The notes below the pieces were generated by a model. That model worked only from the letters and a program-made list of their open reading frames with translations, searched no databases and was not told the DNA's origin. Shown here one piece after another: positions 1,731 through 41,935 of a stretch of 43,862 nt of DNA (positions within the stretch are counted from its first letter, which is position 1; every line of letters starts with the position of its first letter). The position numbers and the translations under genes are program-made. The DNA lies in contig CAMCZF010000001.1 in assembly GCA_945885775.1 (NCBI GenBank), forward strand, positions 1-43,862. The letters are read 5' to 3'. This DNA is from Rhodoferax sp. OV413. GTDB lineage: Bacteria; Pseudomonadota; Gammaproteobacteria; Burkholderiales; Burkholderiaceae_C.

Positions 1731-1786
1731 GCTATTTTTATATCAGTGACTTATGCAATATCCAAGTGGGTTACGATGATTTTCAT
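1731..1786 (+). repeat. Degenerate copy (E) of the ~56-bp dispersed element
   Basis: GCTATTTTTATATCAGT GACTTATGCAATATC CAAGTGGGTTACGATGATTTTCAT aligns without gaps to the other copies, including CAAT at spacer positions 9-12. Right arm of core and tail are degenerate. Confidence 0.55.
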
Positions 1787-1833
1787 TGCTTCTTCGACCT
1801 GAATAGCACACGAGGGTTTGAGGACTAAAACAC

Positions 1834-2340
1834 GTCAGGCCTTTCAATACATGCCGTCTAAGCGCCACCCCCTTCCTCAGTTTCTTACCGGTCGCGTCTC
1901 CCAGCTGGTTTATGAGAGGTGGCTTTCCCGCAAGGCGGCCGCCCACCTAAAACGGGACCAAAAGCGCGGCTATGAGGACGTTTCCGGCTCGCTGTATCGC
2001 GATCAGATTCACGATGCAGTGTTGGCGAGCGAAGGCCTGGACTACTACACAGGGGAAGAGCTCGATTGGAGTCTTCTTAGCAAGTACAACAACGAAGATT
2101 CAGCCGCAGGCAAGCACACTTACAAGGCGGGATTCGCGCTTCTCCCCACGATCGACCATATCGAGTCTGCTCGCATGAACTCAGGGTTTCACATCTGCGG
2201 CTGGCGAACTAATGACGCAAAGCACGACCTGACACACCACGAGTTCATTCAGCTTTGTAAACTCGTACTCCAGAAGGCAGGGTTAAATGTCACCAGCGAG
2301 GCCTAACACCTCGCTCAACCGGACCCGCTATGGCAAGCCT
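1834..2340 (+). mobile_element. Relic integron-type gene cassette (single ORF plus truncated attC), no integrase in window
   Basis: Stop codon lies inside GCCTAAC (RYYYAAC, 2301-2307), followed by ACCTCGCTCAACCGGACCCGCTATGGCAAG (R''-spacer-L'' pattern). GTCAGGC at 1834-1840 is one mismatch from the complementary GTTAGGC and ends 10 nt before the ATG. The right half of attC is absent. Confidence 0.65.
1851..2306 (+). CDS. Hypothetical protein with HNH/His-Me finger endonuclease-like C-terminal motif (151 aa from ATG 1851; TTG 1818 is an alternative start)
   Basis: Pattern G-x-D-YYTGEEL...PTIDHIE...FHIC-x-W-x-x-N-x-x-K-x-DL...EFIQLC. Codon usage is visibly richer in A/T-ending codons than the flanking core genes. 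Confidence 0.6.
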   Translation: MPSKRHPLPQFLTGRVSQLVYERWLSRKAAAHLKRDQKRGYEDVSGSLYRDQIHDAVLASEGLDYYTGEELDWSLLSKYNNEDSAAGKHTYKAGFALLPTIDHIESARMNSGFHICGWRTNDAKHDLTHHEFIQLCKLVLQKAGLNVTSEA

Positions 2341-2379
2341 GCAGTTAAAAACTGGCATCGCATCAGCAACCACCCCAGA

Positions 2380-2575
2380 AAAACCACCCGAGGCTGCGCT
2401 GCGCGCCACCCTTTTGACGCTGCCGAGCAGCGCAGCGGCTGGCGGATCAAGAGGCTCAGATGTTTGAGCCCGCAAGGCGAGTTTCTGAGCCTCCCGCCGG
2501 GCGCGAGCAGCGCAGGGGAGTCGCGACAGCGACCAGCGGCTTAGGGTGGCGCGCAGCGCAGCCTCGGGTGGTTTT
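2380..2575. repeat. 196-bp structured element with perfect 33-bp terminal inverted repeats (REPIN/MITE-like)
   Basis: AAAACCACCCGAGGCTGCGCTGCGCGCCACCCT (2380-2412) is the exact reverse complement of 2543-2575. Inner stem GAGGCTCAGA (2451-2460)/TCTGAGCCTC (2484-2493). Direct repeat GAGCAGCGCAG at 2425 and 2505. Confidence 0.85.
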
Positions 2576-2667
2576 GGCCGAAGCCGCCGGAATACTGGAG
2601 AGCAACACGCCGTTGTCGGATAATGCCTCGATGTTGGACGCCCTTGGGAACCGAACTGGAGACCGCT

Positions 2668-3540
2668 ATGAGCTGGCTTGAAAAACTGCTGCCCCCGAAG
2701 ATTCAACACACCGATCCGGCAGACCGGCGCAGCGTGCCCGAAGGACTGTGGATCAAATGTCCCAGTTGCGAGACAGTGCTGTACAAGACCGACCTGGAGC
2801 ACAACCAAAATGTCTGCCCGACCTGCAGCCACCACCACCGCATCGGGGCGAGGGCCCGGCTTAACCTGTTTTTGGACAATGAAGGGCGCTATGAGATCGG
2901 GCAGGAGGTGCTGCCTGTGGATGCCCTCAAGTTCAAGGACAGCCGCAAGTACCCGGAACGGCTCAAGGAAGCTTTGGAGAACACCGGCGAGACCGACGCG
3001 CTGGTGGTGATGGGCGGCGCTGTGCTGGGCATCGGCGTGGTGGCAGCCTGCTTTGAGTTCGAGTTCATGGGTGGCAGCATGGGTTCGGTGGTGGGTGAGC
3101 GATTTGTACGCGGCGTACACACCGCCATCGAGCAAAAAGTACCCTTCATCTGCTTCACCTCCACCGGTGGTGCGCGCATGCAAGAGGGCTTGCTAAGCCT
3201 GATGCAAATGGCCAAGACCAACGCTTCGCTGACGCGGCTGGCCAAAAAAGGCCTGCCCTATATCAGTGTGCTGACCGACCCCACCATGGGAGGCGTCAGC
3301 GCCGGTTTTGCGTTCTTGGGCGATGTGGTGGTCGCCGAGCCCAAGGCCTTGATCGGCTTTGCCGGCCCGCGTGTGATCGAGTCGACGGTGCGCGTGACGC
3401 TGCCTGAGGGCTTCCAGCGGTCTGAGTTTCTGCAAACCAAGGGGGCGATCGACTTCATCTGCGACCGGCGTGAACTGCGTAAAACCCTGGCCAGCACCCT
3501 GGCCATGCTGCAGCGCCAGCCCGCCGAGGCCGTAGGTTGA
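2668..3540 (+). CDS. accD: Acetyl-CoA carboxylase carboxyltransferase beta subunit
   Basis: MSWLEKLLP start with GGAG RBS. C4 zinc finger (CPSC...CPTC), [28 protein letters not shown]. Confidence 0.97.
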
Positions 3541-4107
3541 TCAGACGGTCAGCAATACCAGGCCCTGCAGGTGGCCCAGCACAATGGCAGCTACCTGCAG
3601 CAAGACCAGCAGCGCCAAGGGCGACAGGTCAACACCGCCGACCAGCGGCACCAGGCGCCGAATCGGCGTTAACGGCGGCGCACACAGGCGCTCCACCACG
3701 TCTGCCATGACGGACGCGGTCTGCACCCAGGACAGGACGGCGTAGACAATCAGCAGCCCGGTCAAACCCGAAATCGCCAAACGCACCACCCCAAACCCAG
3801 CCAGGATAGGCACAGCAAACAGGCCATCGTCGGCACCGGCGAGCAGCCACAACACCATGAACTGCGCCAACTGCAACAGGTAAGCCCCCGCCAGACTGGC
3901 TGTGTCCAATGCGCCCACCGCAGGCAGCACCCGACGCAAGGGCAGCACCAGCCAGTCGGTCAGGGCGAACACAAAACGACCCAGCGGATTGCCCGAGCGT
4001 GCTGACATGGGGATGCGCTGGTGCTGCATGTACACCCGCAGCAGGCAGCTGCCGCCCACCACGCCGGTCACCACTTCGAGCAGCAGGGAAATAATCTGAT
4101 AGAGCAT
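3541..4107 (-). CDS. yggT: YggT family membrane protein
   Basis: Two YGGT-type repeats (NPLGRFVFALTDWLVLPLRRVLP; PIRRLVPLVGGVDLSPL), hydrophobic. Start taken at ATG 4107. Confidence 0.9.
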   Translation of the reverse strand: MLYQIISLLLEVVTGVVGGSCLLRVYMQHQRIPMSARSGNPLGRFVFALTDWLVLPLRRVLPAVGALDTASLAGAYLLQLAQFMVLWLLAGADDGLFAVPILAGFGVVRLAISGLTGLLIVYAVLSWVQTASVMADVVERLCAPPLTPIRRLVPLVGGVDLSPLALLVLLQVAAIVLGHLQGLVLLTV

Positions 4108-4132
4108 GATGAGGTTGGGTAAAACTTCCCGA

Positions 4133-4164
4133 ATCATAGCGACCCGGCGCCAGCCAACTAAAAT
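4133..4164. promoter_or_regulatory. Candidate divergent sigma70 -10 elements for yggT and lysS
   Basis: TATGAT on the minus strand (4133-4138) and TAAAAT on the plus strand (4159-4164) in the short divergent intergenic region. Confidence 0.45.
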
Positions 4165-4202
4165 CAATGGTTGTCCCACCGCCCGATGCGAGCACCAGCC
4201 CC

Positions 4203-5762
4203 ATGTCTGAAACCACGACCCACGCCCCCGTCCACGACGAGAACCAGCTCATGCTGGAGCGGCGTGACAAACTCAAAGCCATCCGCGCACTGCAGGCGCA
4301 GGGTCATGGCGTGGCTTTCCCCAATGACTTCAAGCCGACCGACCGTGCCGATGCACTCTTCGCTGCGCATGCTGGCCAGACTCCAGAGGGCCTACTGGCC
4401 CAGGGCAGCGTGGCCAAAGTGGCCGGTCGCATGATGCTTAAGCGGGTGATGGGCAAGGCCAGCTTCTGCACGCTGCAAGACAGCACTGGCCGCATCCAGA
4501 TCTATATTAAGGGCGAGGACGTGGGTGAGGCGGTGTATGCCAGCTTCAAACACTGGGATCTGGGCGACATCGTGGCAGCCGAAGGCACGATGTTCAAGAC
4601 CAAGACCGGCGAGCTGTCGATCCACGCTACCCAGGTGCGCCTGCTGACCAAAAGCCTGCGCCCCATGCCCGACAAGTTCCACGGCATCGCCGACCAGGAA
4701 GTGAAGTACCGGCAGCGCTATGTCGACCTGATGATGGACGAGACGGCGCGCCAGCGCTTCACGGCGCGCAGCAAGGCTGTGAGCGGCATCCGCGAGTTCA
4801 TGGTGGCGCACAACTTCTTGGAAGTCGAGACGCCCATGCTGCACCCGATCCCCGGCGGCGCCAATGCCCGGCCCTTTACCACTCACCATAACGCGCTGGA
4901 CCAGCAAATGTTTTTGCGCATCGCTCCTGAGCTCTACCTCAAACGGCTGATCGTGGGAGGCTTTGAGCGGGTGTTCGAGATCAACCGTAACTTCCGCAAT
5001 GAAGGCATCTCGGTGCGGCACAACCCCGAGTTCACCATGATGGAGTTCTACGCGGCCTACTGGGACTACCAGGACCTCATGACTTTCACCGAAAGCCTGG
5101 TGCGCGACGCCGCGCGCAAGGCCGTGGACACGCTGCAGCTCAGCTACGACGGCAAACCGGTGGACCTGGCCCTGCCCTTTGAGCGGCTCACCATCCGCGA
5201 GGCCATCGTCAAATACACCGAAGCGGCACTGACGCTTGACGATGGCAGTGGCCTGAGGGTCGACAACCCGGCTTGGCTGATCAACGCTTTACGCAGGCTC
5301 GGCCTGTCGGAAGCCAAACACAAGCTCTCGGGCCGCTCGCTGGCCAGCCTGCAAGTGCTGTACTTTGAGGAAACCGTGGAAGACAAGCTCTGGCAGCCCA
5401 CCTTTATTTGCGAGCATCCGGTGGAAATCTCACCGCTGGCGCGCGAGAGCGACCACAAACCCGGTGTGACCGAGCGCTTCGAGCTCTACATCACCGGGCG
5501 CGAGTTCGGCAACGGCTTTTCAGAGCTGAACGACGCCGAAGAACAAGCGGCACGGTTTCATGCCCAGGTCGAGGCCAAGGACAGTGGCGATGACGAGGCC
5601 ATGTACTTCGACCACGACTTTGTACGGGCGCTGGAGTACGGCATGCCACCCACCGGCGGCTGCGGCATTGGCATCGACCGGCTGATGATGCTGCTGACCG
5701 ACAGCCCGAGCATCCGCGACGTGATCCTGTTCCCTGCCCTGCGCCGCGAGGGCGGGCACTGA
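4203..5762 (+). CDS. lysS: Lysine--tRNA ligase (class II)
   Basis: OB-fold ([15 protein letters not shown]), [54 protein letters not shown]. Confidence 0.98.
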
Positions 5763-5769
5763 GCCGCAT

Positions 5770-6300: not shown

Positions 6301-6428
6301 GGTTTGAGGCACTCCGGTCTTGATCAGATCCATCAGCGGAATGCGGGCACCATGGTTGGAGAGCAGCTGGGGGAACAATACAGCGGTAGTTGAACGAACA
6401 CCTGCGCCGCGCACCAACCCTCGCGCCA

Positions 6429-6522
6429 GATCAGGGTGGTGGGGCGTTCGGCGCAGCGGCATCAAGGAGGAGCCCAACGGGCGGGGGACAGCCGCGGAGC
6501 CGAATGCCCCGCCGGCCTGATC
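6429..6522. repeat. 94-nt imperfect long hairpin between convergent genes
   Basis: Nested complementarity: GATCAGG/CCTGATC, GGGGCGTTCGGC/GCCGAATGCCCC, GCGGC/GCCGC, inner GCCC-AAC-GGGC. Confidence 0.65.
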
Positions 6523-6542
6523 CTAGAAGTCAGCGCCAGAGC

Positions 6543-6905: not shown

Positions 6906-6910
6906 GGGCA

Positions 6911-6966
6911 GCTATTCTATTTGTAGCTGAAACCCCAATACCGACGGGGGCTATGTGCCAAAATCA
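6911..6966 (+). repeat. Copy A of the ~56-bp dispersed element
   Basis: GCTATTCTATTTGTAGC TGAAACCCCAATACC GACGGGGGCTATGTGCCAAAATCA, in the divergent yciH intergenic region. Confidence 0.85.
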
Positions 6967-6999
6967 TGTCCTATCAAACATCCGCTAGGAACCACGCCA

Positions 7000-7227
7000 A
7001 TGTCACGTCCAAGCCTTTGGGCTCCCAAGGTGGCCAGCCTGATCCAGGGCGGCAACAGCGCCGCCGCACTGGCACAGATCAAGGTAGCGCCCAGTGTGAA
7101 AGACCTGCAGGATTTGCGCAAGCTGCTGGGCCAAGGCCAACTGCTGGCCAAGCACCCAGCGATCGACCAGGCCACCGCCGACCAGATTGCGGCTCTGTCC
7201 GCGCCACGACTGCACCGCTCACCCTGA
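7000..7227 (+). CDS. Small hypothetical protein (75 aa)
   Basis: AGGA RBS at 6987-6990, host-like GC-ending codons, fills the gap between yciH and nagZ. No recognised motif. Confidence 0.65.
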   Translation: MSRPSLWAPKVASLIQGGNSAAALAQIKVAPSVKDLQDLRKLLGQGQLLAKHPAIDQATADQIAALSAPRLHRSP

Positions 7228-8358: not shown

Positions 8359-8414
8359 GCTATATATTTTATAGCTATATCGCTATATTTGACGGGGCCT
8401 AGAGGCCTATTTAA
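8359..8414 (+). repeat. Copy B of the ~56-bp dispersed element; tail overlaps acpS stop codon
   Basis: GCTATATATTTTATAGC TATATCGCTATATTT GACGGGGCCTAGAGGCCTATTTAA. Confidence 0.85.
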
Positions 8415-8809
8415 TCATTATTTTTTTCTACCACCACAAAGCTGGCGGCGTAGTCGGTTTCATCCGTCACAGTCACATGGGCACGAAGGCCTTGGCCCTC
8501 AAACCAGGTTTTCAGGCCGCCATGCAGCACGATCACAGGCTGGCCGCTCGGCAGCTTGCCCACCTCGCACAGGCGCCAGCTCATCGGCATGCGCATGCCC
8601 AGGCCAATTGCCTTGCTGAAAGCCTCCTTGGCGCTGAAGCGGGTAGCCAGGTAGCGGAGGCCGCGTTCGGGCCAGCGGGCACTGCGGCTGCGCCAGGTGA
8701 CCAGTTCGGCGTCACTGAGGATTTTTTGGGCGAAACGCTCGCCATGGCGCTCTAAGCTGGCGCGGATGCGGCGCACGTCACAAATGTCGGTGCCAATGCC
8801 GTAAATCAT
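8411..8809 (-). CDS. acpS: Holo-[acyl-carrier-protein] synthase
   Basis: [24 protein letters not shown]. Position after pdxJ. Confidence 0.96.
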
Positions 8810-13057: not shown

Positions 13058-14868
13058 CAATCGTCCACCTGCAGAATTGCCAGAAAGGCCTCTTGTGGCA
13101 CTTCTACGGAGCCAATTTGCTTCATGCGTTTTTTCCCTGCTTTTTGTTTGTCGAGGAGCTTGCGTTTGCGCGAAATATCGCCGCCGTAACACTTGGCGAT
13201 CACGTTCTTGCGAAGGGCTTTGATTGTCTCACGCGCAATGATGTTGGCCCCAATGGCGGCCTGGATCGCCACGTCATACATCTGGCGCGAAATGATCTCT
13301 CGCATCTTGGCAACCACCGCTCGACCGCGGTATTGCGACTGCGACCGATGCACGATGATGGACAGCGCGTCCACCTTGTCGCCATTGAGCAAGATATCGA
13401 CCTTAACCACGTCGGCGGCGCGGTACTCCTTAAACTCGTAATCCATCGAAGCGTAGCCGCGAGATACCGATTTCAGCTTGTCAAAAAAGTCCAGGACGAT
13501 CTCAGCCAGCGGCATCTCATAGGTGAGCATGACCTGCCGACCATGGTAGGCCATGTTCATCTGCATGCCGCGCTTTTGGTTGGCCAGCGTCATCACCGCA
13601 CCCACATAGTCTTGGGGCATGTACAGGTGCACCGTGACAATGGGCTCGCGGACTTCATCCAGCCGACCCTGGTCGGGCATCTTGGACGGGTTCTCCACCA
13701 TGCGCACCTCGCCGTCGGCCTGAACCACCTGGTACACCACACTGGGCGCAGTGGTGATCAGGTCTTGGTCGAACTCTCGCTCGAGCCGCTCCTGCACGAT
13801 CTCCATGTGCAGTAGGCCGAGAAAGCCGCAGCGAAAACCAAAGCCCAGCGCCTGTGACACTTCGGGCTCGTAATGCAGCGACGCGTCGTTGAGCTTGAGC
13901 TTTTCCAAGCTGTCACGCAAGCCCTCATACTGGTTGGCCTCAGTCGGGTAGAGCCCGGCAAACACCTGAGGCTGAATTTCCTTGAACCCGGGCAGCGCCT
14001 CGGTGGCTGTGAGCGCCGCACCGCCTGTACCTGGTTTGATCAAGGTGACGGTATCACCCACTTTGGCCGCCTGCAGTTCGCGGATGCCGGCAATGATGTA
14101 ACCGACCTCGCCCGCCTCCAGCGAGGGCCGCGGCTCATTGCCCGGCGTGAAGACACCCAGCGTGTCGGCGTTGTAGGTGGCGCCGGTGGCCATCAACTTA
14201 ATGCGTTCGCCGCGGGCCAACCGGCCGTCAACGACACGCACCAACATCACAACACCCACATAGCTGTCAAACCAGCTGTCAATGATCATGGCGCGCAGCG
14301 CGCCTTTGGGGTTGCCTTTGGGAGCTGGAATACGGGCGACCACGGCCTCAAGTATTTCGTCAATGCCCATGCCGGTCTTGGCCGAACAGGGGATGGCGTC
14401 CGTGGCGTCGATGCCGATGACATCCTCGATTTCGATCTTGGCGTTCTCCGGATCAGCGTTGGGCAGATCCATCTTGTTGAGCACCGGCACCACCTCGACC
14501 CCAAGGTCCAGCGCGGTGTAGCAATTGGCCACAGTCTGCGCTTCAACGCCCTGGCTGGCATCGACCACCAGCAGCGCGCCCTCGCAGGCCGACAGGGAGC
14601 GACTGACTTCGTATGAGAAGTCTACGTGGCCAGGTGTGTCAATCAAATTCAGGTTATAGGTCTGACCGTCAAGGGCCTTGTAATGCAGCGCCGCGGTCTG
14701 TGCCTTGATGGTTATCCCACGCTCTTTCTCGATGTCCATCGAGTCCAGCACCTGCGCCTCCATCTCGCGTTCCTGCAAGCCGCCACAACGCTGGATCAGG
14801 CGGTCAGCCAGGGTCGACTTACCATGGTCAATGTGGGCAATGATCGAGAAATTTCTGATGTGATTCAT
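13057..14868 (-). CDS. lepA: Elongation factor 4 (LepA)
   Basis: [54 protein letters not shown]. Confidence 0.99.
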
Positions 14869-22948: not shown

Positions 22949-22969
22949 GGAAATTTCAAAAATAATGGA

Positions 22970-23025
22970 TGAAAATAGGCTCCAGGCCTTGTACAGCCTA
23001 GGTTTACCGCTATAAATCGAGGAGC
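22970..23025 (-). repeat. Copy D of the ~56-bp element; core overlaps the last codons and stop of fabH
   Basis: GCTCCTCGATTTATAGC GGTAAACCTAGGCTG TACAAGGCCTGGAGCCTATTTTCA. Confidence 0.75.
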
Positions 23026-23987
23026 ACAGCACCCCAGGTGAAGCCGCCACCCACGCCTTCGAGCATCAGCGTGTCGCCCGGCTGAATACGGCCGCTGCGC
23101 ACCGCAACATCAAGCGCCAGCGGGATTGAGGCAGCCGACGTATTGCCATGCTGGTCCAGGGTGACGATCACCTTGTCCATCGACAGTTTGAGCTTGCGCG
23201 CCGTGCTTTGAATGATACGAATGTTGGCCTGGTGCGGGACCAGCCAGTCAATATCGGCCTCGGTCTTGCCGGCCTTAGCCAGCACGGCGCGCGCCGCACC
23301 CTCCAACAGGCCCACAGCCAGTTTGAACACCGCCTGCCCATCCATCTTCAGCAGCGGGTCCCCCAAGACCTGACCCCCCGCCACATGGCCGGGCACACAG
23401 AGGATGCCAACATGGCTGCCGTCGGCGTGCAAGTCGCTGGCCAGAATGCCGGGGACCTCAGAGGTCTCCAAGACCACGGCACCAGCGCCATCACCAAACA
23501 GCACGCAAGTGGTACGGTCCTTGAAATCGAGAATGCGAGAAAAAATTTCGGTACCCACCACCAAGGCCTTGTGAGCCGCACCAATACGGATCATGGCGTC
23601 GGCCACGGTCAGCGCATACACAAAACCGCTACAAACGGCCTGCACATCAAACGCGGCACCACCGGCGGCTCCAAGTTTGTGCTGCAGGATGCAGGCGGTA
23701 GAGGGGAACACCATGTCGGGGGTGGACGTGGCGACGATGATCAGGTCGATGTCGCTGGCTTGCAAGCCCGCCGCCTCGAGCGCAGCACGGCATGCAGGCA
23801 AGGCCAGGTCACTGCTGAAGACGCCGGCGGAGGCAAAATGCCGTGCGTGAATGCCGGTGCGCTCGACAATCCAGTCATCCGAACTTTCCACGCCCTGTAA
23901 GGCTAATTCGGCCACCAGATCAGCGTTGCTCAGGCGCCGCTGCGGCAAATAGCTGCCGGTGCCAGTAATTCGGGAATACAGTGTCAT
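23010..23987 (-). CDS. fabH: 3-oxoacyl-ACP synthase III
   Basis: [36 protein letters not shown]. Confidence 0.97.
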
Positions 23988-25454: not shown

Positions 25455-26003
25455 TCAATCAGGGCTGCCGCGCCGCAACTTGGCCAGGGCGGCAAACGGG
25501 TGGGCCTTTTCCGGCTCCTGCGCATCAAAATTCGGATCCGCCACAGCCATTTTGAGGCCAGCCGGACAGGCCTCGTGGCGCGGCACCAGCGGCAGCGCCA
25601 TCAGCAGTTCATCCTCAATCAAGCCGGCCAAATTAAACTGTCGACTGGTCACCAGCAGGTCCTCTTCAGCGTCATCGTCCTGAGCCTCGGCCAGGGCCTC
25701 GGTCTCGACAAATCGGAACCAGCGGTCAACTGCAAGCGCCTGCTCGACAGGGCCCAGGCAGCGCTGACAAGTCAGTGGCAGTTTGGCAGCCAGTGTCAGG
25801 TGCAGCCAGGCCTGGGTAGCGCCAGTTTGGTCCGCGCGCAAGTCGCCCTGGACCGACCAATCAACAGGGTTATCGGCCCCGAGACCTTGTGTTTCCTCGA
25901 TCAGCCGATCGTAATTCGATAGCAAATCACGGCCTGAGCGTGGCCGTGTCGATTCGGCAAAGGCTTGAACGTCAAGGGAGGGTGCCCGGGTTTCATTTTG
26001 CAT
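25455..26003 (-). CDS. yceD: YceD/DUF177 family protein
   Basis: LTCQRCL, LIEDELLMALPLVPRH, HPFAALAKL. Upstream of rpmF. Confidence 0.93.
   Translation of the reverse strand: MQNETRAPSLDVQAFAESTRPRSGRDLLSNYDRLIEETQGLGADNPVDWSVQGDLRADQTGATQAWLHLTLAAKLPLTCQRCLGPVEQALAVDRWFRFVETEALAEAQDDDAEEDLLVTSRQFNLAGLIEDELLMALPLVPRHEACPAGLKMAVADPNFDAQEPEKAHPFAALAKLRRGSPD
25868..25923 (-). repeat. Degenerate in-frame copy (I) of the ~56-bp element inside yceD
   Basis: GCTATCGAATTACGATC GGCTGATCGAGGAAA CACAAGGTCTCGGGGCCGATAACC. Same reading frame as the algR copy. Confidence 0.45.
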
Positions 26004-27427: not shown

Positions 27428-28486
27428 TTAGCGTAGCACCGCGCTGTGGCCGAGGGTGCGCACCGCGGCCTCGCCGATGGAGGCACCAAAACGCTTGACC
27501 AGACGCTCGGCCACGTTTTCGTGACGCGTGTAGTCAACGATGTCCTCGGCTTTGACGACTTCTCGCGCCACATAGTCCAGGTTGGCCAACTGGTCTGCCA
27601 GACCGAGCGCCACCGCCTGCTCGCCACTCCAGAACAGGCCGCTGAAGGTCTCCGGCGTCTCTTTCAGGCGCGCACCGCGTCCAGCCCTCACCACAGCAAT
27701 GAATTGCAAATGAATTTGGTCCAACATGGATTGGGCAAACACCCTCTGTTTGTCGGTCTGCGGGCTGAACGGGTCGAGAAAGCCTTTGTTTTCACCCGCG
27801 GTCATCAGACGGCGCTCAATGCCCAGCTTGTCCATCAGCCCGGTGAAGCCAAAGCCATCCATCAGCACGCCAATGCTGCCCACAATGCTGGCCTTGTCGA
27901 CAAAAATCTTGTCGGCTGCCACGGCAATGTAATAAGCGGCCGAGGCGCAAGACTCTTCCACCACGGCATAGACCGGCTTTTGGTGCTTGGCTTTCAGACG
28001 GCGAATCTCGTCGTTGATGATGCCGGCCTGGACCGGACTGCCGCCCGGTGAATTGATCAATAGCACCACGGCCAAAGCGCCCTGGTCCTCAAAGGCCGCC
28101 CTTAGCGAGGCGCCAATCGCGTCGGCACTGGCCTCAGCACCTGAGGCGATCTCGCCCTTGATCTCGACCACCGCCGTGTGGGGCTGCGAGACATCGCGGG
28201 TTGGCCCATTTTGGCTAAAACCAATCCAGGCCACCACCATCAAAAAACCAAGCCAAGCCAGGCGCACGCCGTTGCGCCAGCGTCGCGCCACCCGCTGCTC
28301 TTCCAGCGCTGCAAAAGCCAGTTTTTCCAGCGTGGCGCGCTCCCACCCTGGGGCTGCCGGCTGGCCGAACTTCGCTTCATTTTTCATAGCGCTAGCGTCA
28401 ATACCAGCAAGGCTTGGCGGCTGATTTGATGGATCGGATACAGAAGAAGGCGTGGTACCAGGCTCAGGGCTCAGAGGGTCGTTCAT
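27428..28486 (-). CDS. sppA: S49 family peptidase (SppA-like)
   Basis: INSPGGSPVQ, CASAAYYIA, SIVGSIGV, FSGLFWSG. ATG immediately after the Rieske stop. Confidence 0.9.
   Translation of the reverse strand: MNDPLSPEPGTTPSSVSDPSNQPPSLAGIDASAMKNEAKFGQPAAPGWERATLEKLAFAALEEQRVARRWRNGVRLAWLGFLMVVAWIGFSQNGPTRDVSQPHTAVVEIKGEIASGAEASADAIGASLRAAFEDQGALAVVLLINSPGGSPVQAGIINDEIRRLKAKHQKPVYAVVEESCASAAYYIAVAADKIFVDKASIVGSIGVLMDGFGFTGLMDKLGIERRLMTAGENKGFLDPFSPQTDKQRVFAQSMLDQIHLQFIAVVRAGRGARLKETPETFSGLFWSGEQAVALGLADQLANLDYVAREVVKAEDIVDYTRHENVAERLVKRFGASIGEAAVRTLGHSAVLR
28374..28429 (+). repeat. Copy F of the ~56-bp element, inside the sppA 5' region (antisense to the gene)
   Basis: GCTTCATTTTTCATAGC GCTAGCGTCAATACC AGCAAGGCTTGGCGGCTGATTTGA. 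Encodes NQPPSLAGIDASAMKNEA. Confidence 0.7.
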
Positions 28487-30580: not shown

Positions 30581-30836
30581 TGTCTGGAGTTTAGTCCACA
30601 CGCCATCCACAGTCCCGCTAGCAGGTCGATACCGCCGAGCATGATGCGCGCAAACCACAAGCCAGTTGCCTGTGGTGGCCTGCACCACATACGGTCAAGA
30701 CGACGCCTTGAACCACTGATACGGAATACCCCAAATCCGCAGACCACAGCGCCTGCGGATGGATTGAAGCAAGATGTTTGTGTTGATGAGCCTGTACCCC
30801 TTGTGCCTGCGGCGTGTTAGTGCGCCGTCGACTGGC

Positions 30837-30892
30837 ATGGGGCGGCCATCAGCGTCCGACCGATGGACGCAGCCCGCTATTTCAGCGATAGC
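30837..30892 (-). repeat. Copy G of the ~56-bp element, in the rluC-rne intergenic region
   Basis: GCTATCGCTGAAATAGC GGGCTGCGTCCATCG GTCGGACGCTGATGGCCGCCCCAT. Second hairpin GCGTCC-N7-GGACGC. Confidence 0.65.
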
Positions 30893-31055: not shown

Positions 31056-34000
31056 ATGAAACGGATGCTGATCAACGCCACGCAGGCTGAAGAACGCCGC
31101 TTGGCCATTGTCGATGGACAAAAACTTCTCGATTACGAAATCGAGATCGAGGGGCGCGAACAGCGCAAGGGCAATATTTACAAAGCCGTAGTGACCCGGG
31201 TCGAGCCCTCGCTCGAAGCCTGCTTTGTCGACTACGGCGAAGACCGGCACGGCTTTTTGCCGTTCAAGGAAATCTCGCGCCAGTATTTCCAGCCCGGCGT
31301 GGCCGCCAATCAGGCCCGCATCCAGGATGCCATCCGCGAAGGCCAAGAACTGCTGGTGCAGGTGGAAAAAGAAGAGCGCGGCAACAAGGGTGCAGCGCTG
31401 ACGACCTTTGTGTCATTGGCCGGCCGCTATGTGGTACTGATGCCCAACAACCCGCGGGGCGGTGGCGTGTCGCGCCGGATTGAGGGCGAAGACCGTACCG
31501 AGCTGAAAGAAGCGCTCGACCAGCTCGAGTACCCCAACGGCATGAGCATCATTGCGCGCACTGCCGGTATCGGCCGCAGCGCGCCCGAGCTGCAGTGGGA
31601 CCTGAACTACCTGCTCAAGCTCTGGACCGCCATTGACGGCGCGGCCAAGGGTGGCAAAGGCGCCTTCTTGATTTACCAGGAATCGAGCTTGGTGATCCGC
31701 GCCATTCGCGACTACTTCAACCACGACATTGGCGACATCCTGATCGACACCGACGACGTGTATGACCAGGCCCAGCAGTTCATGGCGCACGTCATGCCCG
31801 AGCATGCAGCCAGGGTCAAGCGCTACCGCGATGACGCGCCGCTGTTCTCGCGTTTCCAGATTGAGCACCAGATCGAGTCGGCTTACGCCCGCACCGTACA
31901 GCTGCCCAGTGGTGGCGCGATCGTGATCGACCACACGGAAGCCCTGGTGTCAGTGGACGTGAACTCAGCGCGCTCCATTCGTGGTGGTGACATCGAAGAG
32001 ACCGCCACACGCACCAATCTGGAAGCTGCCGACGAGGTAGCGCGCCAGATGCGCCTGCGCGATTTGGGTGGCCTGATCGTGATCGACGTCATCGACATGG
32101 AAGAAAGCCGTAACCGGCGTGAAGTAGAAAGCCGCCTGCGCGACGCGCTGCGGCAGGACCGCGCCCGGGTGCAGTTCGGTACGATCAGTAAGTTCGGCCT
32201 CATGGAAATGAGCCGCCAGCGACTGCGTCCTGCGCTGAGCGAAGGTGCCTCCATCCCCTGCCCGCGCTGCGGCGGTGCTGGCCATATCCGCGACACCGAA
32301 TCGAGCGCGCTGCAAATCCTGCGCATCATCCAGGAAGAGTCGCTCAAGGACAACACAGCCTCGGTGCTGTGCCAGGTGCCGGTCGAGGTGGCCTCGTTCC
32401 TGCTCAATGAGAAGCGCACCGAGATCGCCAAAATTGAGCTCAAACAGCGCATCAACGTGCTGATGGTGCCCAACAAAGCACTGGAAACCCCGAACTACAA
32501 GCTCGAGCGCCTCAAGCACGACGACCCGCGGCTGGACAACATCCAGGCCTCTTACAAGATGGCGGAAGAGATCGAGGATGCCACCTCGGTCACACGCCGC
32601 TCGCAGGAGCCGACTAACAAGCAAACGCCAGTGATCAAGGGCGTGCTGCCCGACGCGCCAGCGCCCGCTGCCGCACCGCGGGCGGAAGCGCCTAAGCCGG
32701 TGGTGCAAGCCACCGCACCCGTGGCACCGGCACCGGTTGTGCGGCCTACAACGCCAGCACCAGCGCCGACGGCAGAAAAGGGCTTTTTTGGCTGGGTCAA
32801 GCAACTGTTTGCGCCAGCACCTGCTGCCGCACCGGTGGCCGCACCGCAGCCTGCAATCGAGCCCGCCAAAGACGACAAGCGCGACGGCCGTGGCCGGGAT
32901 GGCGCACGCCGCGGCGAACCGCGCGCTGACGGTCGGGGTGAGCCCCGCGCCGATGGCCGGGGTGGACGCGGCGAGGGACGCGGTGAAGGCCGGGGTGAAG
33001 GCCGTGGCGGACGGGGCGGACGGGGCCGGGGCGAACGCACCGGACCAGGCCAGCGTGACCGCATGGACGCCGACGGCAAGCCAACCGGCAACGAGGGCGT
33101 GAACCTGCCAGAGGCTGCGGTTTCTGCTGCAGACGCACCGGCCGCAGAAGCACGCACAGAGCGACCGGGCCGAAGCGGTGAACGTAGTGAACGTGGTGAG
33201 CGCAATGACCGGGGCGAGCGTAGCCGGGGCGAGCGTCGACCCGAGCGCAGCCGTCGCCCGGACGAGCCCGCCAGGCCAGACACCCATGGCGCACCTGAAG
33301 TGCAACGGGCTGATGCCCTGGCAGCTGGTGCCGATGCGGCTCCCGGCGTCGAATCTGGCGAGCAGCAGGCTGAGGGCGGCGCTCGATCGCAAGAACCGCG
33401 CGAACGACGCCCCCGTGGCCGCGACCGTGACCGTGGACCACGCCCGGAGCGTGGTGAGAGAAGCGACCGCGGCGAACGCACCGAGCGCACGGAACCCGCA
33501 GGGCGCGAGGAAGCCGCGACCAACGAGGAGACCTCCGCGGAGCCGCGCAAGTCTTACTTCACAGCCAGCGCAGCCACGCCAAACGCTGCACCGGGCACTG
33601 ATCAGCCGATGAGCCCAGCGCCCATGCCCGCCGAGGCACCAGCGGCTTTGGCAAGCTTGGCACCCGTTGTAAACGAGCCTGTGCCATCGCCGGCTCAAGA
33701 GCCAACGCCAGTGGCGGCAACGCCAGCAGTTGTTTCTGTGGTGACAACGGCGCCAGTTCACATGCCCGCGGCAGTGCCCGTGGCCTCCACGGCCGCCGCC
33801 GCCATGCCCTCGGTCCAAGCCTTTGTCTTGCCCTTGGGCGAGTTGGCCGCTGTCGCAGAAAGCTCAGGCTTGAACTGGGTCAATTCGGATGCTGTCAAGA
33901 TTGCGGCTGTACAAGCCGCGATAGCGGCAGAGCCGAAACCGGTCCACGTGCCCCGGCAACGACCGGCAGCCCCGGTGCTCGATGAAGGTCCGCTGGTGCT

Positions 34001-35364: not shown

Positions 35365-35366
35365 GG

Positions 35367-36434
35367 TCAGCGACCTGCCGCCGCCGTGGCCAGGGCGGCC
35401 AGGGTATCGTCCACGCGGGGCAACTGCAACAGCTGCAGTTGTTGTTGCACCTGCAGCAGCAGAGCGGCCGCAGATTGCGTCTTGCGCGACGCCGGGTCAA
35501 AGTACTTGTCCAGGCCGTAACGGGCGGCGACCAGATCGGCGCGCGCTGACTCCATCTGCCGCGCCAGTAGCCCCAGGCGGGCATTCAGGAGCCTAAGCTT
35601 AAAGTTCTCTCGCAAGAAAAACGACTGTTCAGGCGACAAAAGGGCCGCCTCGGGCTCCTCGATACGGCTGAGCCGCACCAACGCGCGGGCCTCGTCCCAG
35701 ACCAACTGCAGCGCCTGCTGCCACCAACTGGGTTTGGCTTCAGGCAGTGCCCGCTTGGCGGCCGCGATCGCCGCCACCGGTGCCACCGCGTTGGCCAGCA
35801 CCAGTTCGTCGGCCAGGCGCACCAGCTCGTCGAGTTTGACCAGCAAACTTGGCGTGTCGCTCACAGCCGCTGACTTGATTCGTTCGATGTCGCGCACAAT
35901 GGCCCGCTGCAAAGCGTTGAGCCTGGGCTGGGCTGCTCGTAGCACCCGTTGGTCCGCCGATCGCAGCGCGGCCAGCAAAGGCTCAACACTGCCCGTCAAT
36001 TGCGCCTGCTGCTGGGCCAACCGGATCGCCGATTCAATGTCCACCACCAGGTTTTCGTCGCGCGAGCGTGACAGGCTTTGCATCAGCTCTTGCAACTGGG
36101 TCCGTTGCAGCGAAATCTCACTCAGCCGTGCCTCAAACACCGCCACACGGGCTGCTGTCTCGCGCGCCAGTTCCTGGGCCTGGCGGGCACTGGCGCGGGC
36201 CTCTTGCGCTTGCTCGCCGGTCTGGGCACTTTGGCTCGCCAGTTGCAGCTGAATGTTGTCGAGTTTTTGCCAAAGCAACAGGTTGGCCAGCAGCGCCAGC
36301 AGGGCCAAAGCACCGCAGGCCGCCAGCCAACCCCAGGCGCGACGCGTCACAGGGGGGGGCGCCGCGGTCTCGGCGGCGCCGACCACGCCATTCCCCCCCT
36401 CACCTTGCGGCGCTGGCGCATATGTATCAGTCAT
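35367..36434 (-). CDS. hemX: HemX family membrane protein
   Basis: TM segment plus coiled coil, LAQQQAQL, LLSPEQSFFLRENFKLRLLNARLGLL. Confidence 0.9.
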   Translation of the reverse strand: MTDTYAPAPQGEGGNGVVGAAETAAPPPVTRRAWGWLAACGALALLALLANLLLWQKLDNIQLQLASQSAQTGEQAQEARASARQAQELARETAARVAVFEARLSEISLQRTQLQELMQSLSRSRDENLVVDIESAIRLAQQQAQLTGSVEPLLAALRSADQRVLRAAQPRLNALQRAIVRDIERIKSAAVSDTPSLLVKLDELVRLADELVLANAVAPVAAIAAAKRALPEAKPSWWQQALQLVWDEARALVRLSRIEEPEAALLSPEQSFFLRENFKLRLLNARLGLLARQMESARADLVAARYGLDKYFDPASRKTQSAAALLLQVQQQLQLLQLPRVDDTLAALATAAAGR

Positions 36435-37273
36435 TCAACTGATTCTATCGAGGCCACGATGTCTGACAGGGCGGGCCGTGACTCGTGCACTTGGCCAAAA
36501 CCGGCCGCCCGGGCCGCCAACGCAATGCGCGGATGGGTCGCGACCGCACAGGCTTGCTGCCAGCTTTGCCCTGGCAGCAAGTGCAGCAAATTTACGATGG
36601 CTTGCGAACTACTGAACAGCCAGACCGAACCATCATCGGCCGCCCGACTCGCCAGGTCGCGCTCAGCTCGGCCCCAACGGGGCGCGCTGCGCTGGTAGGC
36701 CACCAAAAACTGTGCTTGCAGGCCACGCGCGGCCAATTGCTCAGCCAGCCAGTCACGTCCACGACCTGTTTGGTGTTCGGTCACGCTGCCAGACCCGCCG
36801 CCCCCCCCAGGCGGCTGCGCCTCACTGTCGCCATCAACATCATCGCCACGCACAATCAATACCCGGTCGCCGGTCTGCAGTTGGTCACGCACCACCTGCC
36901 ACAGTGACTCGGAGTCAAATTGGCCGGCCTCGGGTGACGGCATGTCGATGCAAGCCGCAGATACACCGGCTTGCAGCAGCGCCTGCCGGGTCCCTGGCCC
37001 GGTCACCCATGCTCTTGTTTTTATAGCTGAAGACCCAATAAGGACGGGGGCTAGAGGCGGTTTTTCTGCAAAAAATAGACCAACGGCATTGGCGCTGACG
37101 AACATCACTGCAGCCCAGTCGCCCAGCCGCTCCCAAGCCTGGTGCAAGGGTGCGGTATCGGTCACGGCGGCCACCTCGATCAGCGGCAGCGCCACCACAT
37201 CCAGACCCCGTGTCCTCAAATCCTGACACCAGCGCTGCGCTTCGCGCTGCGGCCGGGTGACGATCACGCGCAT
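36431..37273 (-). CDS. hemD: Uroporphyrinogen-III synthase
   Basis: MRVIVTRP, LPLIEV, FVSANAV, GPGT, DSESL, GRDWL, AYQR, FSSSQA, HPRIA. Confidence 0.93.
   Translation of the reverse strand: MRVIVTRPQREAQRWCQDLRTRGLDVVALPLIEVAAVTDTAPLHQAWERLGDWAAVMFVSANAVGLFFAEKPPLAPVLIGSSAIKTRAWVTGPGTRQALLQAGVSAACIDMPSPEAGQFDSESLWQVVRDQLQTGDRVLIVRGDDVDGDSEAQPPGGGGGSGSVTEHQTGRGRDWLAEQLAARGLQAQFLVAYQRSAPRWGRAERDLASRAADDGSVWLFSSSQAIVNLLHLLPGQSWQQACAVATHPRIALAARAAGFGQVHESRPALSDIVASIESVE
37011..37066 (+). repeat. Copy C of the ~56-bp element, in frame inside hemD (antisense to the gene)
   Basis: GCTCTTGTTTTTATAGC TGAAGACCCAATAAG GACGGGGGCTAGAGGCGGTTTTTC. AT-rich patch in a GC-rich gene; encodes KPPLAPVLIGSSAIKTRA. 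Confidence 0.88.
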
Positions 37274-37278
37274 GCGGC

Positions 37279-38226: not shown

Positions 38227-38276
38227 GCGTGGTGGCCCAAACTCGTACCCGACGTGTAATTTTTAAAGGTCGGACG

Positions 38277-38286
38277 ATGCTAGCAT
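38277..38286. promoter_or_regulatory. Palindromic extended -10 (TGcTAGCAT on both strands) between divergent hemC and ppc
   Basis: ATGCTAGCAT is a perfect palindrome within an 86-bp divergent intergenic region. Confidence 0.5.
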
Positions 38287-38312
38287 GGTCCGCCTCTTGC
38301 TACGCCTCTGCC

Positions 38313-41171
38313 ATGAACAAACCTGCCCCCCCTGCCCCGTCTGAACGCTCGCCGACTGCCAAGAGCAAAGACAACGAAAGACCGCTGGTCGAGGACATCC
38401 GGCTGCTGGGGCGCATTTTGGGCGACGTGATCCGGGAGCAAGAGGGTGAAACCGCGTTTGAGCTGATCGAGCAGATTCGCAAGCTGTCGGTCGCGTTCCG
38501 GCGCGACGCCGACCACGACGCCGACCGCGCCCTTAAAAAGCTGCTCAAGGGCCTGAGCGGCGACCAGACGGTGAGCGTGATCCGCGCCTTCACTTATTTC
38601 AGCCATCTGGCCAACCTGGCCGAAGACCGACACCATATCCGCCGCCGTGCCATCCATGAGCGCGCCGGCGACACCCAGGAGGGCAGCATCGACGTTGCCC
38701 TGGCCCGTCTGCGCTGGGCGGGTATTTCGACCAAAACCATCGCCCAGACCCTGGCCACCAGCTTTGTGTCACCGGTGCTGACCGCGCACCCGACCGAAGT
38801 CCAGCGCAAGAGCATTCTGGATGCCGAGCGCGATATTGCCCAACTTCTGAGTGCCCGGGACGACATACGGGCCAAGGCTGCGGTCAACAACACCCGCAAG
38901 GATGCCTTAAGCCCACGCGAGCTGGCCGCCAATGAGGCTCAGATGCGAGCCCGGGTGCTGCAGCTGTGGCAAACCCGGCTGCTGCGCTTTACCAAGCTCA
39001 CCGTGGCCGACGAGGTGGAAAACGCCCTGAGCTATTACGAGGCCACGTTTTTGCGCGAGATCCCGCGCCTCTACGCGGACCTGGAGCGCGAGCTGGGGCA
39101 GCAGCCGGTGCACAGTTTTTTGCGCATGGGCCAGTGGATTGGCGGCGACCGTGACGGCAACCCCAATGTCAATGCCCAAACCCTGGTGCATGCCATGCGC
39201 CGCCAGGCCGAGGTGGCGCTGCGCCACTACCTGACCGAGGTGCATTACCTGGGGGGGGAACTCTCGATCTCGGCGATGCTGGTCCAGTGCGCCCCGGCCA
39301 TGCAGGCGCTGGCCGATCGCTCACCGGACACCAACGCCCACCGGCAAGATGAACCCTACCGCCGGGCCCTGACGGGCATGTACGCCCGGCTGGCAGCCTC
39401 GCTCAAGGCGCTGACCGGCGGCGACGCCGCACGCCACGCCGTGGCGCCCCAAAATGCCTATGCCAGTGCGGCCGAGTTTCTGGCCGATCTGCGCACCATC
39501 GAAACCTCGCTGAAGTCGCACCATGGCGCCGCCTTGACGGTGCAACGGCTGCACCCGCTGATCCGGGCAGTCGAAGTCTTTGGCTTTCATCTGGCCACCG
39601 TTGACCTGCGTCAGAGCTCGGACAAGCACGAACTGGTGGTGGCCGAGCTGTTGGCCCAGGCCCAATTGGAGGGCGGCTACGCCCAGCTCGATGAGGCTGC
39701 AAAACGCAGCGTTCTGATGCAGCAATTGCGCGATGCACGGCCGCTGCGGGTGCCTGGGGCCAGCTATTCCGAACACACATTGAGTGAACTGGCCATTTTT
39801 GAGACCGCCCGGCAACTGCATCAGGACTTCGGCGCCCAGGCGATCCGCCACTACATCATCAGCCACACAGAAACGGTGAGCGACTTGCTGGAGGTGCTGC
39901 TGCTGCAAAAAGAGGTGGGCCTGATGCGCGGCCTGCTAGCGGATGGCGCGCAGGGCAGCGCCACCAACGACCTGATTGTGGTGCCCCTGTTTGAGACCAT
40001 TGACGACCTGCGCAATGCCGCACCCATCATGCGCGAGTTTTACGCCCTGCCCGGCGTGCAGGCCATGGTGCGGCGCAGCGGCGCCGAGCAGGACATCATG
40101 CTGGGCTACTCCGACAGCAACAAAGACGGCGGCATTTTCACCAGCAACTGGGAGCTCTACCGCGCTGAAATCGCCCTGGTGGCCATTTTTGACGAGCTCA
40201 ACGGCGGCGTCGCCGAGGGCGGCATTCGCCTGCGCATGTTCCACGGCCGCGGCGGTACGGTCGGGCGCGGCGGTGGCCCCAGTTACCAGGCTATCCTGGC
40301 CCAGCCGCCCGGCACGGTACGGGGCCAAATTCGGCTGACCGAACAAGGCGAGGTGATTGGCTCCAAATACGCCAACCCCGAGATTGGGCGGCGCAACCTG
40401 GAAACCCTGGTGGCAGCCACGCTGGAGGCGACCCTGCTGCAGCCGACCAAGCCCGCCAGCGCGCCCTTTCTCAAGGCTGCCGCCGAGCTCTCCGCCACCA
40501 GCATGGCGGCCTACCGCCAGCTGGTCTATGAGACCCCAGGCTTTACCGAGTATTTTTTTGACTCGACCCCGATCCGTGAAATTGCCGAGCTCAACATCGG
40601 CTCGCGTCCAGCCTCGCGCAAACCAAGCCAGCGGATCGAAGACCTGAGGGCCATCCCCTGGGGCTTTAGCTGGGGCCAGTGCCGGTTGACGCTGCCGGGC
40701 TGGTACGGGTTTGGTTCGGCGGTGGAGCAGTTCCTGCGCGCAGAGGGCACCAAGCCGCAAAAAGAGCGCTTGGCGCTGCTTCAGCAAATGCAGCGTCAAT
40801 GGCCGTTCTTCAAAACCCTGCTGTCCAACATGGACATGGTGATCGCCAAGAGTGACCTGGCCCTGGCCTCGCGCTACGCTGAGCTGGTGACCGACGCGCG
40901 CCTGCGAAAAAAGATTTTCAGCATGATCGAGGCCGAATGGCACCGCACGGTGACGGCACTGGGCCAAATCACCGGCGAGCGCCAGCGTCTGGCCAGCAAC
41001 ACCGCGCTGCAACGCTCCATCCGCCACCGCTTTCCTTACATTGACCCGCTGCACCACCTCCAGGTGGAGCTGGTGCGCCGCTACCGCGCCGGCCAGGCGG
41101 ACGAGCGGGTCCAGCGCGGTATTCACATTTCAATCAATGGCATCGCAGCCGGTCTGCGCAACACCGGGTAA
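38313..41171 (+). CDS. ppc: Phosphoenolpyruvate carboxylase
   Basis: [60 protein letters not shown]. Start at ATG 38313. Confidence 0.98.
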
Positions 41172-41188
41172 GGCACAGGGTCAAGGGC

Positions 41189-41935
41189 TCAGGTGCCGAA
41201 GGCCTCACGCACGGCGGCCAGTTGTCGGCGCGAAACCGGCAGGGACTCGGCAAGCCCGTGCAAGCGCACAGCCCATCCGCTGCCGTCGGGGCCGACCTCG
41301 TGCCTATCGAGCGCACGCAACGCCGAGCGCGCCACCAGGGCATTGCGGTGAATGCGGATGAAGCGGTTGCCATGGCGCTGCTCCTGTTCGCTCAGCGACC
41401 CCTCCAACAGATGGGTGGCCGTGGCCGTGCCAACGGTCAGGTACTTCAGCTCAGCCTTGAGGTAAAGCACCTGCGACAGCGGCAGCCGCTCCAGCCGACC
41501 ACGCCCCGGAACTATCAAAAATTCATCGGTCAAATCAGGTTCTAGCGCCTGTCGGGATTGACGGAACCGCTCTACTTTTTGTAGCGCTGACTGGAGTCGC
41601 TCCAGCCGGACCGGTTTGGTCAGGTAATCCACGGCATCGAGCTCAAAGGCCTGCAGCGCGTGCTCGGCATGGGCGGTGACGAACACCACGACGGGCGGGG
41701 CTGTCAAACCGGCCAGGGCGCGGGCCAGGCTCAGGCCATCGGCGCCAGGCATGTGGATGTCGACCAGCACCACATCCGCGAGGTGGTGCTGCAGCCAGGC
41801 CAGCGCCTGTGCCCCATTGGTGGCCTCGCCCAAGCACTGCGCAGCGGGCTGCGTGCAGTCGCCCAGCAGTGTGCGCAGCCGGCTGCGCGCCAAAGCCTCG
41901 TCGTCCACGACCAGCACCGTCAACGGGCGGCTCAT
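41189..41935 (-). CDS. algR: LytTR-family response regulator (AlgR-like)
   Basis: REC domain (VVDDE, DIHMPG, FVTAH, DYLTKP) plus LytTR domain (FIRIHRNALV, LPVSRRQ). Confidence 0.85.
   Translation of the reverse strand: MSRPLTVLVVDDEALARSRLRTLLGDCTQPAAQCLGEATNGAQALAWLQHHLADVVLVDIHMPGADGLSLARALAGLTAPPVVVFVTAHAEHALQAFELDAVDYLTKPVRLERLQSALQKVERFRQSRQALEPDLTDEFLIVPGRGRLERLPLSQVLYLKAELKYLTVGTATATHLLEGSLSEQEQRHGNRFIRIHRNALVARSALRALDRHEVGPDGSGWAVRLHGLAESLPVSRRQLAAVREAFGT
41530..41585 (-). repeat. Copy H of the ~56-bp element, in frame in the REC-LytTR linker of algR
   Basis: GCTACAAAAAGTAGAGC GGTTCCGTCAATCCC GACAGGCGCTAGAACCTGATTTGA. Encodes LQKVERFRQSRQALEPDL. Confidence 0.8.

Follow-up and report, generated by a model that had tools for sequence, protein, structure and literature searches.

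A long three-part DNA element held at fixed chromosomal sites in the Comamonadaceae

Analysis of a 43,862-nucleotide stretch of the Rhodoferax sp. OV413 genome (assembly GCA_945885775.1, contig CAMCZF010000001.1, positions 1 to 43,862; hereafter the window) revealed it to contain copies of a dispersed element, a real three-part DNA pattern that has long persisted at its fixed sites and that mostly recodes the genes it occupies without changing their length. Its sequence features indicate that the element is likely bound as double-stranded DNA by a putative protein complex. It is apparently a real, family-wide selected site that has gone undescribed, as no description of it turned up in the full-text literature searched, from which most subscription papers and figures were out of reach. 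An earlier note on the window had listed nine copies (A to I), and all of the sequences that it quoted were present where it had placed them.

Anatomy, selection and persistence of the element

The genome to which the window belongs, here called G000, comprised 3.39 Mb in 332 contigs and was 82% complete. A 70-column matrix was iterated on G000 and used for a genome-wide scan, as the earlier note had proposed. This revealed 338 matches at a score of at least 14 bits and 334 at 18 bits or more, with none in the reversed genome. The window copies were scored by a matrix trained without the window's contig, the best null scores of which were 9.0 bits for reversed or complemented genome sequence and 9.9 bits for codon-shuffled sequence. 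Eight of the nine were clear members relative to these nulls, the exception being copy G at -17 bits. The density of the 334 copies was approximately one per 10 kb, and the one per 5 kb estimated from the window did not hold genome-wide. Informative columns spanned about -3 to +66 and carried 49 bits in total, giving an element of 65-70 bp in place of the approximately 56 bp first proposed.

The first part of the element is a 17-bp odd dyad (T-GCTAY-N7-RTAGC-W) centred at position 9, the second is a weaker dyad in the middle, centred at position 32, and the third is an asymmetric tail (GGSCTRGAGSC-N2-WTTT..Y....AA). The core and the tail each contributed about 22 bits. The core as originally worded, GCTAY-N7-RTAGC, was exact in copies A, B and G and inexact in the other four of the seven sequences quoted. 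The claim of a fixed geometry was borne out: when cores of at least 10 bits were paired with tails of at least 8 bits within +/-12 bp, 306 pairs were found at offset 0 and nine at all other offsets combined. Tails alone at 18 bits were no more frequent than in the null (2 vs 2), cores alone showed a slight excess (22 vs 4) and half-sites were not enriched. All 333 of the 56-mers compared in G000 were distinct, with a mean pairwise identity of 50%, and the GC content of the element was 44%.

Dependence between columns was local, and Watson-Crick covariation across three possible stems was at chance level in 323 G000 copies; in 41 copies from six other genomes, two out of 16 pairs exceeded chance weakly, with no correction applied. 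The A/T tracts at positions 7-11 and 51-54 shunned TpA (ATAT, for example, was observed twice where 28 were expected) and pyrimidine-purine steps were fixed at positions 14, 35 and 42. We read these features as suggesting shape recognition of double-stranded DNA. T3 was found in 95% and A15 in 99% of copies, so that the T-N11-A dyad of a LysR-type operator is present. A/T periodicity was weak, 10.5-11 bp not being the top period. A search of Rfam returned no family at gathering score and none of its three weak matches overlapped a copy of the element, which is thus undescribed in that database. One weak match, to AsrC at window positions 14795-14868 (26 bits vs a gathering score of 111), is probably a coding similarity.

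Alignment with the sister genome G198 (91% identity; 752 kb aligned, with 1.18 of 4.3 Mb compared) showed that all 75 copies in the aligned DNA sit at the same site in both genomes; 69 of these were scorable without gaps. At high-information columns only 4 of 123 four-fold sites differed, compared with 22,415 of 110,381 (20.3%) elsewhere, and for A/T four-fold sites the figures were 2 of 96 against a background of 44%. For copies outside the in-gene class, 11 of 416 such columns differed, against an intergenic background of 12%. The motif columns are therefore under strong purifying selection. The low-information columns, at which 21 of 125 four-fold sites differed, changed at or below the neutral rate, so that repeated overwriting does not account for the conservation. 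The two orientations were equally conserved (16/400 vs 15/576 changes). Amino acid change under the element was found in 131 of 1014 codons (12.9%) compared with 4.9% elsewhere, and it was raised only from about -25 to +78 around the element. The synonymous rate was not raised, and local hypermutation was rejected as synonymous rates flanking the element equalled the background.

The site of copy H was used as the in-place test case. It was gap-free in 27 of 28 aligned orthologs, one of them from another family, whether or not the element was present; 16 of the 27 congeners scored carried it at 20 bits or more, and most were about 70% identical in DNA to the window gene. The core of copy H is largely a synonymous recoding of LQKVER. 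An alignment with 770 kb of an element-poor congener, G008, covered 23 in-gene copies and left five uncovered. The net length change at the 23 was 0 amino acids in 13, +2 to +6 in eight, +16 in one and -15 in one, and a 21-amino-acid insertion was seen in none. Identity to G008 was 43% under the element and 74% elsewhere, and G008 retained a few decayed copies. GcvP aligned through its element with PDB entries 9uz6 and 4lgl with one-residue gaps. Among 45 G198 proteins scanned, 17 had a copy inside a continuous Pfam match and 11 of these exceeded the model by fewer than 10 residues.

In four metagenome assemblies, neither copy A nor copy B showed a joint. A miniature transposable element with inverted repeats (MITE) or a Rickettsia palindromic element was rejected, as empty sites shorter by the length of the element were not encountered, the profile is asymmetric and the copies are heterogeneous. 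Most copies are not insertions, so the analogy with Rickettsia palindromic elements, which had been offered at first, fails. The two other suggestions made with it survived: site-by-site persistence without length gain in most in-gene copies argues against a recently spread MITE, and persistence, purifying selection, absence of length gain and absence of covariation support a putative multi-part protein recognition site under selection.

Distribution, polarity and dialects

Family-wide surveys used a strict pattern that recovers 115 of the G000 copies. Matches were present in 48 of 150 family genomes, 31 of which had at least 10, and carriers included Acidovorax, Rhodoferax, Polaromonas, Giesbergeria and Comamonas. 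Among 80 congeners, 34 had 40 or more matches (rich), 10 had 10-39, 20 had 1-9 and 16 had none, the last two groups making 36 poor genomes with fewer than 10. Of 157 genomes from other families in the order, one had three matches and four had one. Among the genomes searched, the element at scale is confined to one family, the Comamonadaceae. The three matches were in G298, and strict matches also occurred in records that bear the titles Synechococcus sp. and Candidatus Egaibacter (among L229, L230, L264 and L253); these extra-family matches are probably mislabelled or mixed bins, or transfer.

Element density rose approximately 13-fold with local GC content, from one copy in 18 windows below 55% GC to 31 in 43 windows above 66%. 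The depletion in foreign DNA that the earlier note had suggested looking for was found: two plasmids had 2 matches in 618 kb (38 expected at the density of G198) and five cultured phages, taken without regard to host or lifestyle, had none in 408 kb (25 expected). The strict pattern was carried by 25 viral loci. Five phage records, picked because they had a match, held 15 matches in 285 kb and all five encoded a tyrosine integrase. Phage copies (L106, L107, L108, L109, L112, L113) were often paired 430-1060 bp apart, unlike those of chromosomes. Spacings in G000 were under-dispersed, with 12 of 140 below 1 kb compared with 27 expected (P=0.001). On complete chromosomes the element was spread all round, with no concentration at ori or ter.

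Polarity was assessed by hand counts with the origin placed at dnaA, or by GC skew for G198 and G000. In Acidovorax temperans (G417), 64 of 74 exact matches lay on the majority strand of their contig, and the one-mismatch matches listed for contig 1 were mixed (14 vs 12). The leading-strand share was 21/30 in G157 (the first listed of its 128 matches), 26/39 in G186, 48/81 in G418, 40/63 in G020, 27/52 in G229 and, among the matches listed, 8/21 in G267. By GC skew it was 44/97 in G198 and 98/209 in G000. A strand bias relative to ori and ter, raised earlier as a check, was thus found in some genomes and not in others, being strong in G417, moderate in four and absent in four. As both orientations are equally conserved in G000 and G198, we read this bias as more likely one of birth than one of function.

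A 66 kb section of the distant congener G020 had the element at the same position for eight of the nine window copies, the stretch with copy E being absent. When positions 19-33 of seven intact ortholog pairs were scored for the G000 dialect, G000 copies gave +5.6 to +14.0 and G020 copies -17.9 to +0.6; other genomes also showed middle sequences of their own. Old sites have thus been retuned in step, which points to a trans-acting reader with a changing preference. Very probably a protein acting in trans recognises sequence as well as shape, its preference drifting between lineages.

Eight pairs of copies with unrelated flanks shared 25-43 exact in-register bases. Exact runs of at least 25 were found in 20 copies, some of them segmental duplicates, compared with 0-4 in second-order Markov simulations, which may understate higher-order convergence. 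Five copies present only in G020 had an alignable G000 site, and their net length changes were 0, 0, +24, +30 and -33 nt. In both copies with a gain (+24 and +30 nt) the tail overlays tail-like target sequence. By analogy, the G020-only copies and the shared runs fit short single-strand patches, as in double illegitimate recombination with short patches (SPDIR). SPDIR is described as a rare mutation process in which ectopic single strands integrate at microhomologies during replication (bioRxiv 10.1101/2023.11.22.568220). SPDIR-like patches, which we invoke for births only, would give variable net lengths and a strand bias of births; SPDIR, unlike the element, is a mutation process and no repeat family. 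The genome-specific dialects at old sites, the occasional copying between loci and the leading-strand bias of some genomes were all unforeseen by the earlier note.

Two further arrangements of copies were observed. The sequences at G000:C261:1913 and C287:1019 are 97% alike upstream, and their similarity stops precisely at element position 55-56, as though the end of a duplication lay inside the tail. In G118 (L278 4654-5015, L279 4867-4883) three near-identical copies lie in 146-bp tandem units, and one core is common to tails on both strands.

Window copies and genomic context

Table 1. Copies of the element in the window and the host gene of copy H
Feature	Position	Strand	Score (bits)	Setting
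Copy E	1731..1793	+	21 (weak)	Intergenic; intergenic stretch absent from congener G020
Copy A	6911..6973	+	40	Between divergent genes; site occupied in G198 and G020
Copy B	8359..8421	+	69	Overlaps 3′-end of ORF 8411-8809 (-); site shared with G198 and G020
Copy D	22963..23025	-	47	Overlaps 3′-end of ORF 23010-23987 (-); site shared with G198 and G020
Copy I	25861..25923	-	25	Within gene whose G198 ortholog is Pfam YceD; site shared with G198 and G020
Copy F	28374..28436	+	44	Antisense over 5′ part of ORF 27428-28486 (-); site shared with G198 and G020
Copy G	30830..30892	-	-17 (core 13, tail -23)	Upstream of 1000-aa ORF at 31065
Copy C	37011..37073	+	61	Antisense within listed ORF 36431-37273 (-); site shared with G198 and G020
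Host gene of copy H	41189..41935	-		Response_reg and LytTR in G198 ortholog; in-place test case
Copy H	41523..41585	-	36	Residues ~117-138 (ALQKVER...LEPDL) of receiver-LytTR regulator recoded, length unchanged

Copy C was placed inside its ORF by the ORF tool and lies upstream of the later start given by our own gene caller. The G020 site orthologous to copy G scored 20 bits, which suggests that copy G is probably a decayed copy. The middle of copy G forms a hairpin in G000 and a different hairpin occurs at the same place in G020; these hairpins have possibly been co-opted as a leader structure. The ORF downstream was recognised by eye and we take it to be RNase E-like.

Gene context was taken from our own codon-pair gene caller, which called 3076 genes in G000. 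Of 334 copies, 166 were wholly in ORFs, 72 overlapped an ORF end, 83 were intergenic and 13 were at contig edges. The in-gene copies comprised 87 sense and 79 antisense, and 124 used the two frames that are most often stop-free. The element touched 160 of the 3076 called genes (about 5% of G000 proteins). Two copies were held by dprA and one by comEC; together with MutL, RecN-like and AddA-like genes these give the in-gene hosts a repair and competence look. By eye, we also take UvrA, UvrD, RecG, PriA and RecJ to be among them. An unrelated GC-rich repeat of about 115 bp, consisting of one long hairpin, was found at window positions 6409-6523. BLAST matched it 12 times in G000 and many times in G198 and in metagenomes, and it could be BRE or a MITE.

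Candidate readers and explanations

A gene co-distributed with the element, of the RAYT/TnpA or competence type, had been proposed as a lead, and none of those sought tracked it across the 80 congeners. G000 has comEC, dprA and a ComP_DUS-family pilin. A search with AddB detected the gene in 10 of the 16 zero-match genomes and did not detect it in 16 of the 34 rich ones. The AddAB-like genes (G000:C4:16815-22695) are patchy, AddB occurring in 39 of the 80 congeners and both genes missing at the syntenic site in G008. A Y1 (RAYT-like) transposase gene is present in single copy at G000:C113:5217-5912 (L305) with a copy of the element at its 3′-end. This gene, the neighbour of which we take by eye to be gltB-like, was found in 73 of 80 congeners, including 12 of 16 with no match, and is flanked by its own short palindromic repeats, which recur at about ten places in G000. 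One membrane-protein gene, presumably beside a bactofilin-like gene, was found in all but 15 of 36 poor, one of 10 middling and three of 34 rich genomes, kinship being uncorrected; this profile is suggestive and not one-to-one. Searches for synteny gaps against 770 kb from G008, 400 kb from G216 and 160 kb from G268, in each case less than half of the genome, turned up no convincing candidate for a DNA-binding protein. No replacement motif was found in element-poor G008, and a signal in G216 proved to be repeat-protein coding sequence.

The most likely explanation, which we put forward tentatively, is by analogy that of an uptake-type signal kept by molecular drive, with its reader in the competence pathway. 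The DNA uptake sequence (DUS) reportedly has lineage dialects, as the element has. Like the uptake signal sequence (USS) and DUS (as described in the accessible text of PMC2817400 and PMC7811141), the element arises in place, uses preferred frames and variable residues, is scarce in foreign DNA and has A-tracts that set shape. What favours this reading is that the element originates in place, lies at permissive residues, is seldom found in foreign DNA, shows dialects and is evenly spread. Fragments with a better site would enter the cell more often, and the better sites would replace worse alleles by homologous recombination, despite some amino acid cost. Since there is no enrichment of half-sites, births would take place by patching from another copy: during replication, a single strand of 20-45 nt would patch a target that it matches in part. 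We give an even chance to births of this kind during replication, which would also produce the leading-strand bias of some genomes. Natural transformation is reported for A. temperans and A. facilis, and salmon DNA is reported to compete only to a limited degree in V. eiseniae, in the accessible text of PMC4212676; both Acidovorax species carry the pattern. Like the hosts of uptake sequences, the host of the element has competence machinery; so do element-free congeners.

Several observations weigh against an uptake-type signal. With its 65-70 bp and 49 bits, the element far exceeds in length the 9-11-bp USS and DUS cores with their AT flanks. Only one of 140 spacings was below 300 bp, and the close inverted pairs typical of USS were not seen. 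In A. temperans (G417 contig 2), 23 of 24 matches beyond dnaA were on the leading strand; to our knowledge a replichore bias is not a feature of uptake sequences. Among congeners, comEC (79/80) and ComP_DUS (76/80) occur with or without the element, and no receptor or partner protein was found among the candidates profiled in the 80 congeners and the partial synteny gaps. G008 is no clean outgroup, its ancestor probably having borne the element, and six of the 17 in-domain copies exceeded the Pfam model by 12-49 residues, in an uncontrolled comparison. The integrase-bearing phage records were, as said, selected for a match. Finally, A. defluvii carries the pattern yet was not transformable according to the accessible text of PMC4212676.

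Compared with USS and DUS, which have a short core of 9-12 bp in a motif of about 30 bp or less, the element is two to six times longer and ten times sparser, with two dyads and an all-or-none tail. It lacks the close inverted pairs that serve USS and DUS as terminators and differs further in the leading-strand bias of some genomes and the signs of inter-locus copying. The element evolves like an uptake sequence but is set apart from USS and DUS by size and pairing.

A site for a cytoplasmic chromosome-organising or replication protein under ordinary host selection, such as a wrapping or bending oligomer (e.g. a LysR-like tetramer), is possible but somewhat unlikely. The known sites matS, SlmA/Noc, KOPS and Chi measure 8-16 bp and are polarised either regionally or strictly, KOPS and Chi by replichore. 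The element shares with them the feature of many selected protein sites inside genes, but it has a length of 65-70 bp and an even spread, both of its orientations are conserved in G000 and G198 and, unlike Chi, it does not co-occur with AddAB. Its core obeys the LysR T-N11-A rule (PMC6449761), and two dyads 23 bp apart with TpA-avoiding A-tracts would suit a bending protein; the promoter placement and fixed orientation of a LysR-type operator were not found, half of the copies being in ORFs in either sense. The leading-strand excess in G417, G157, G186, G418 and G020 favours such a site, since an asymmetric complex could prefer one fork orientation, and under-dispersion and residence on chromosomes fit it equally. 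However, there is no concentration at ori or ter, both orientations are equally conserved in G000 and G198, strand bias is absent from G229, G198 and G000, A/T periodicity is weak, and the 36 of 80 congeners with fewer than 10 matches suggest a function that is often dispensable.

A domesticated single-stranded mobile unit, with an RTAG tag and a hairpin and once moved at forks by an HUH/RAYT transposase, is improbable. In Acidovorax-type copies RTAG is followed by a GCGCTT...AAGCGC inverted repeat, as in the GTAG families of repetitive extragenic palindromic (REP) sequences and REPINs with their RAYT transposases (PMC3733652 and PMC3116915, in their accessible text). The written strand is the lagging-strand template, the target of IS200/IS605 elements (PMC6006769, accessible text), a copy of the element adjoins the Y1 transposase gene, and the copies that add 24-30 nt favour an origin of this kind. 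Most in-gene copies add nothing, however. Half of all copies occupy genes with no gain in length, and there is no covariation in G000 and only a weak signal in the six other genomes. Doublets or clusters resembling bacterial interspersed mosaic elements are lacking in G000. The transposase has different flanking repeats, occurs in zero-match congeners and has only the one copy of the element at its end. The main text of PMC3733652 names none of six Comamonadaceae genera, and the supplements, as far as accessible, list Polaromonas naphthalenivorans once. BRE, another dispersed repeat, lies partly in genes and in some of the same genera (PMC3110155, accessible text). By that description BRE is about 90 bp and 69% GC, occurs in 1-29 often tandem copies and is also found in Bordetella, which by these measures sets it apart from an element of 44% GC present as hundreds of single copies and not at scale outside one family.

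Drive through another transfer route, in which the element would mark DNA for packaging or release by a machine of the gene-transfer-agent, transduction or secretion type, is more improbable again. The footprint is of wrapping size and the same drive signatures would follow, but under-dispersion holds only below 1 kb, less than a capsid load, the five cultured phages had no copies and no such machine was identified. Some phage copies adjoin ORFs that by eye we take to be terminase-like, which counts for this route. An ordinary family of MITEs, or of coding insertions of the Rickettsia type, is hardly credible: hundreds of dispersed copies in stop-free frames and the tandem units of G118 would suit it, and the distinctness of the 56-mers, the 75 of 75 shared sites in the sister genome, the absence of 21-amino-acid insertions from 23 orthologs and the absence of joints at copies A and B stand against it.

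A more far-reaching reading can also be drawn up. The element would then be a self-propagating, family-wide chromosome address for a putative protein machine, patched at forks into genes without lengthening them, held by a drive that rewrites proteins at hundreds of loci and retuned with the specificity of its reader. Such an address, which would be distinct both from mobile elements and from uptake sequences of the classical kind and would be a bacterial parallel to co-evolving systems of reader and site, seems unlikely to us on present evidence.

Sequence-specific DNA uptake has been described for two bacterial families only, according to the accessible text of PMC7811141. If the uptake-type reading is true, a third, unrelated and much longer uptake signal would reopen the question of how uptake specificity arises, and the selective uptake hinted at in Verminephrobacter would become directly testable. 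The 34 rich and 36 poor genomes among the 80 congeners provide a ready phylogenetic profile for seeking the reader protein. Irrespective of the identity of that reader, a single DNA pattern shapes some 5% of G000 proteins, and amino acid turnover under it is more than doubled. In the Comamonadaceae, a common family of freshwater, soil and wastewater, the element may also help to mark the hosts of temperate phages and offer a handle for the transformation of its carriers.

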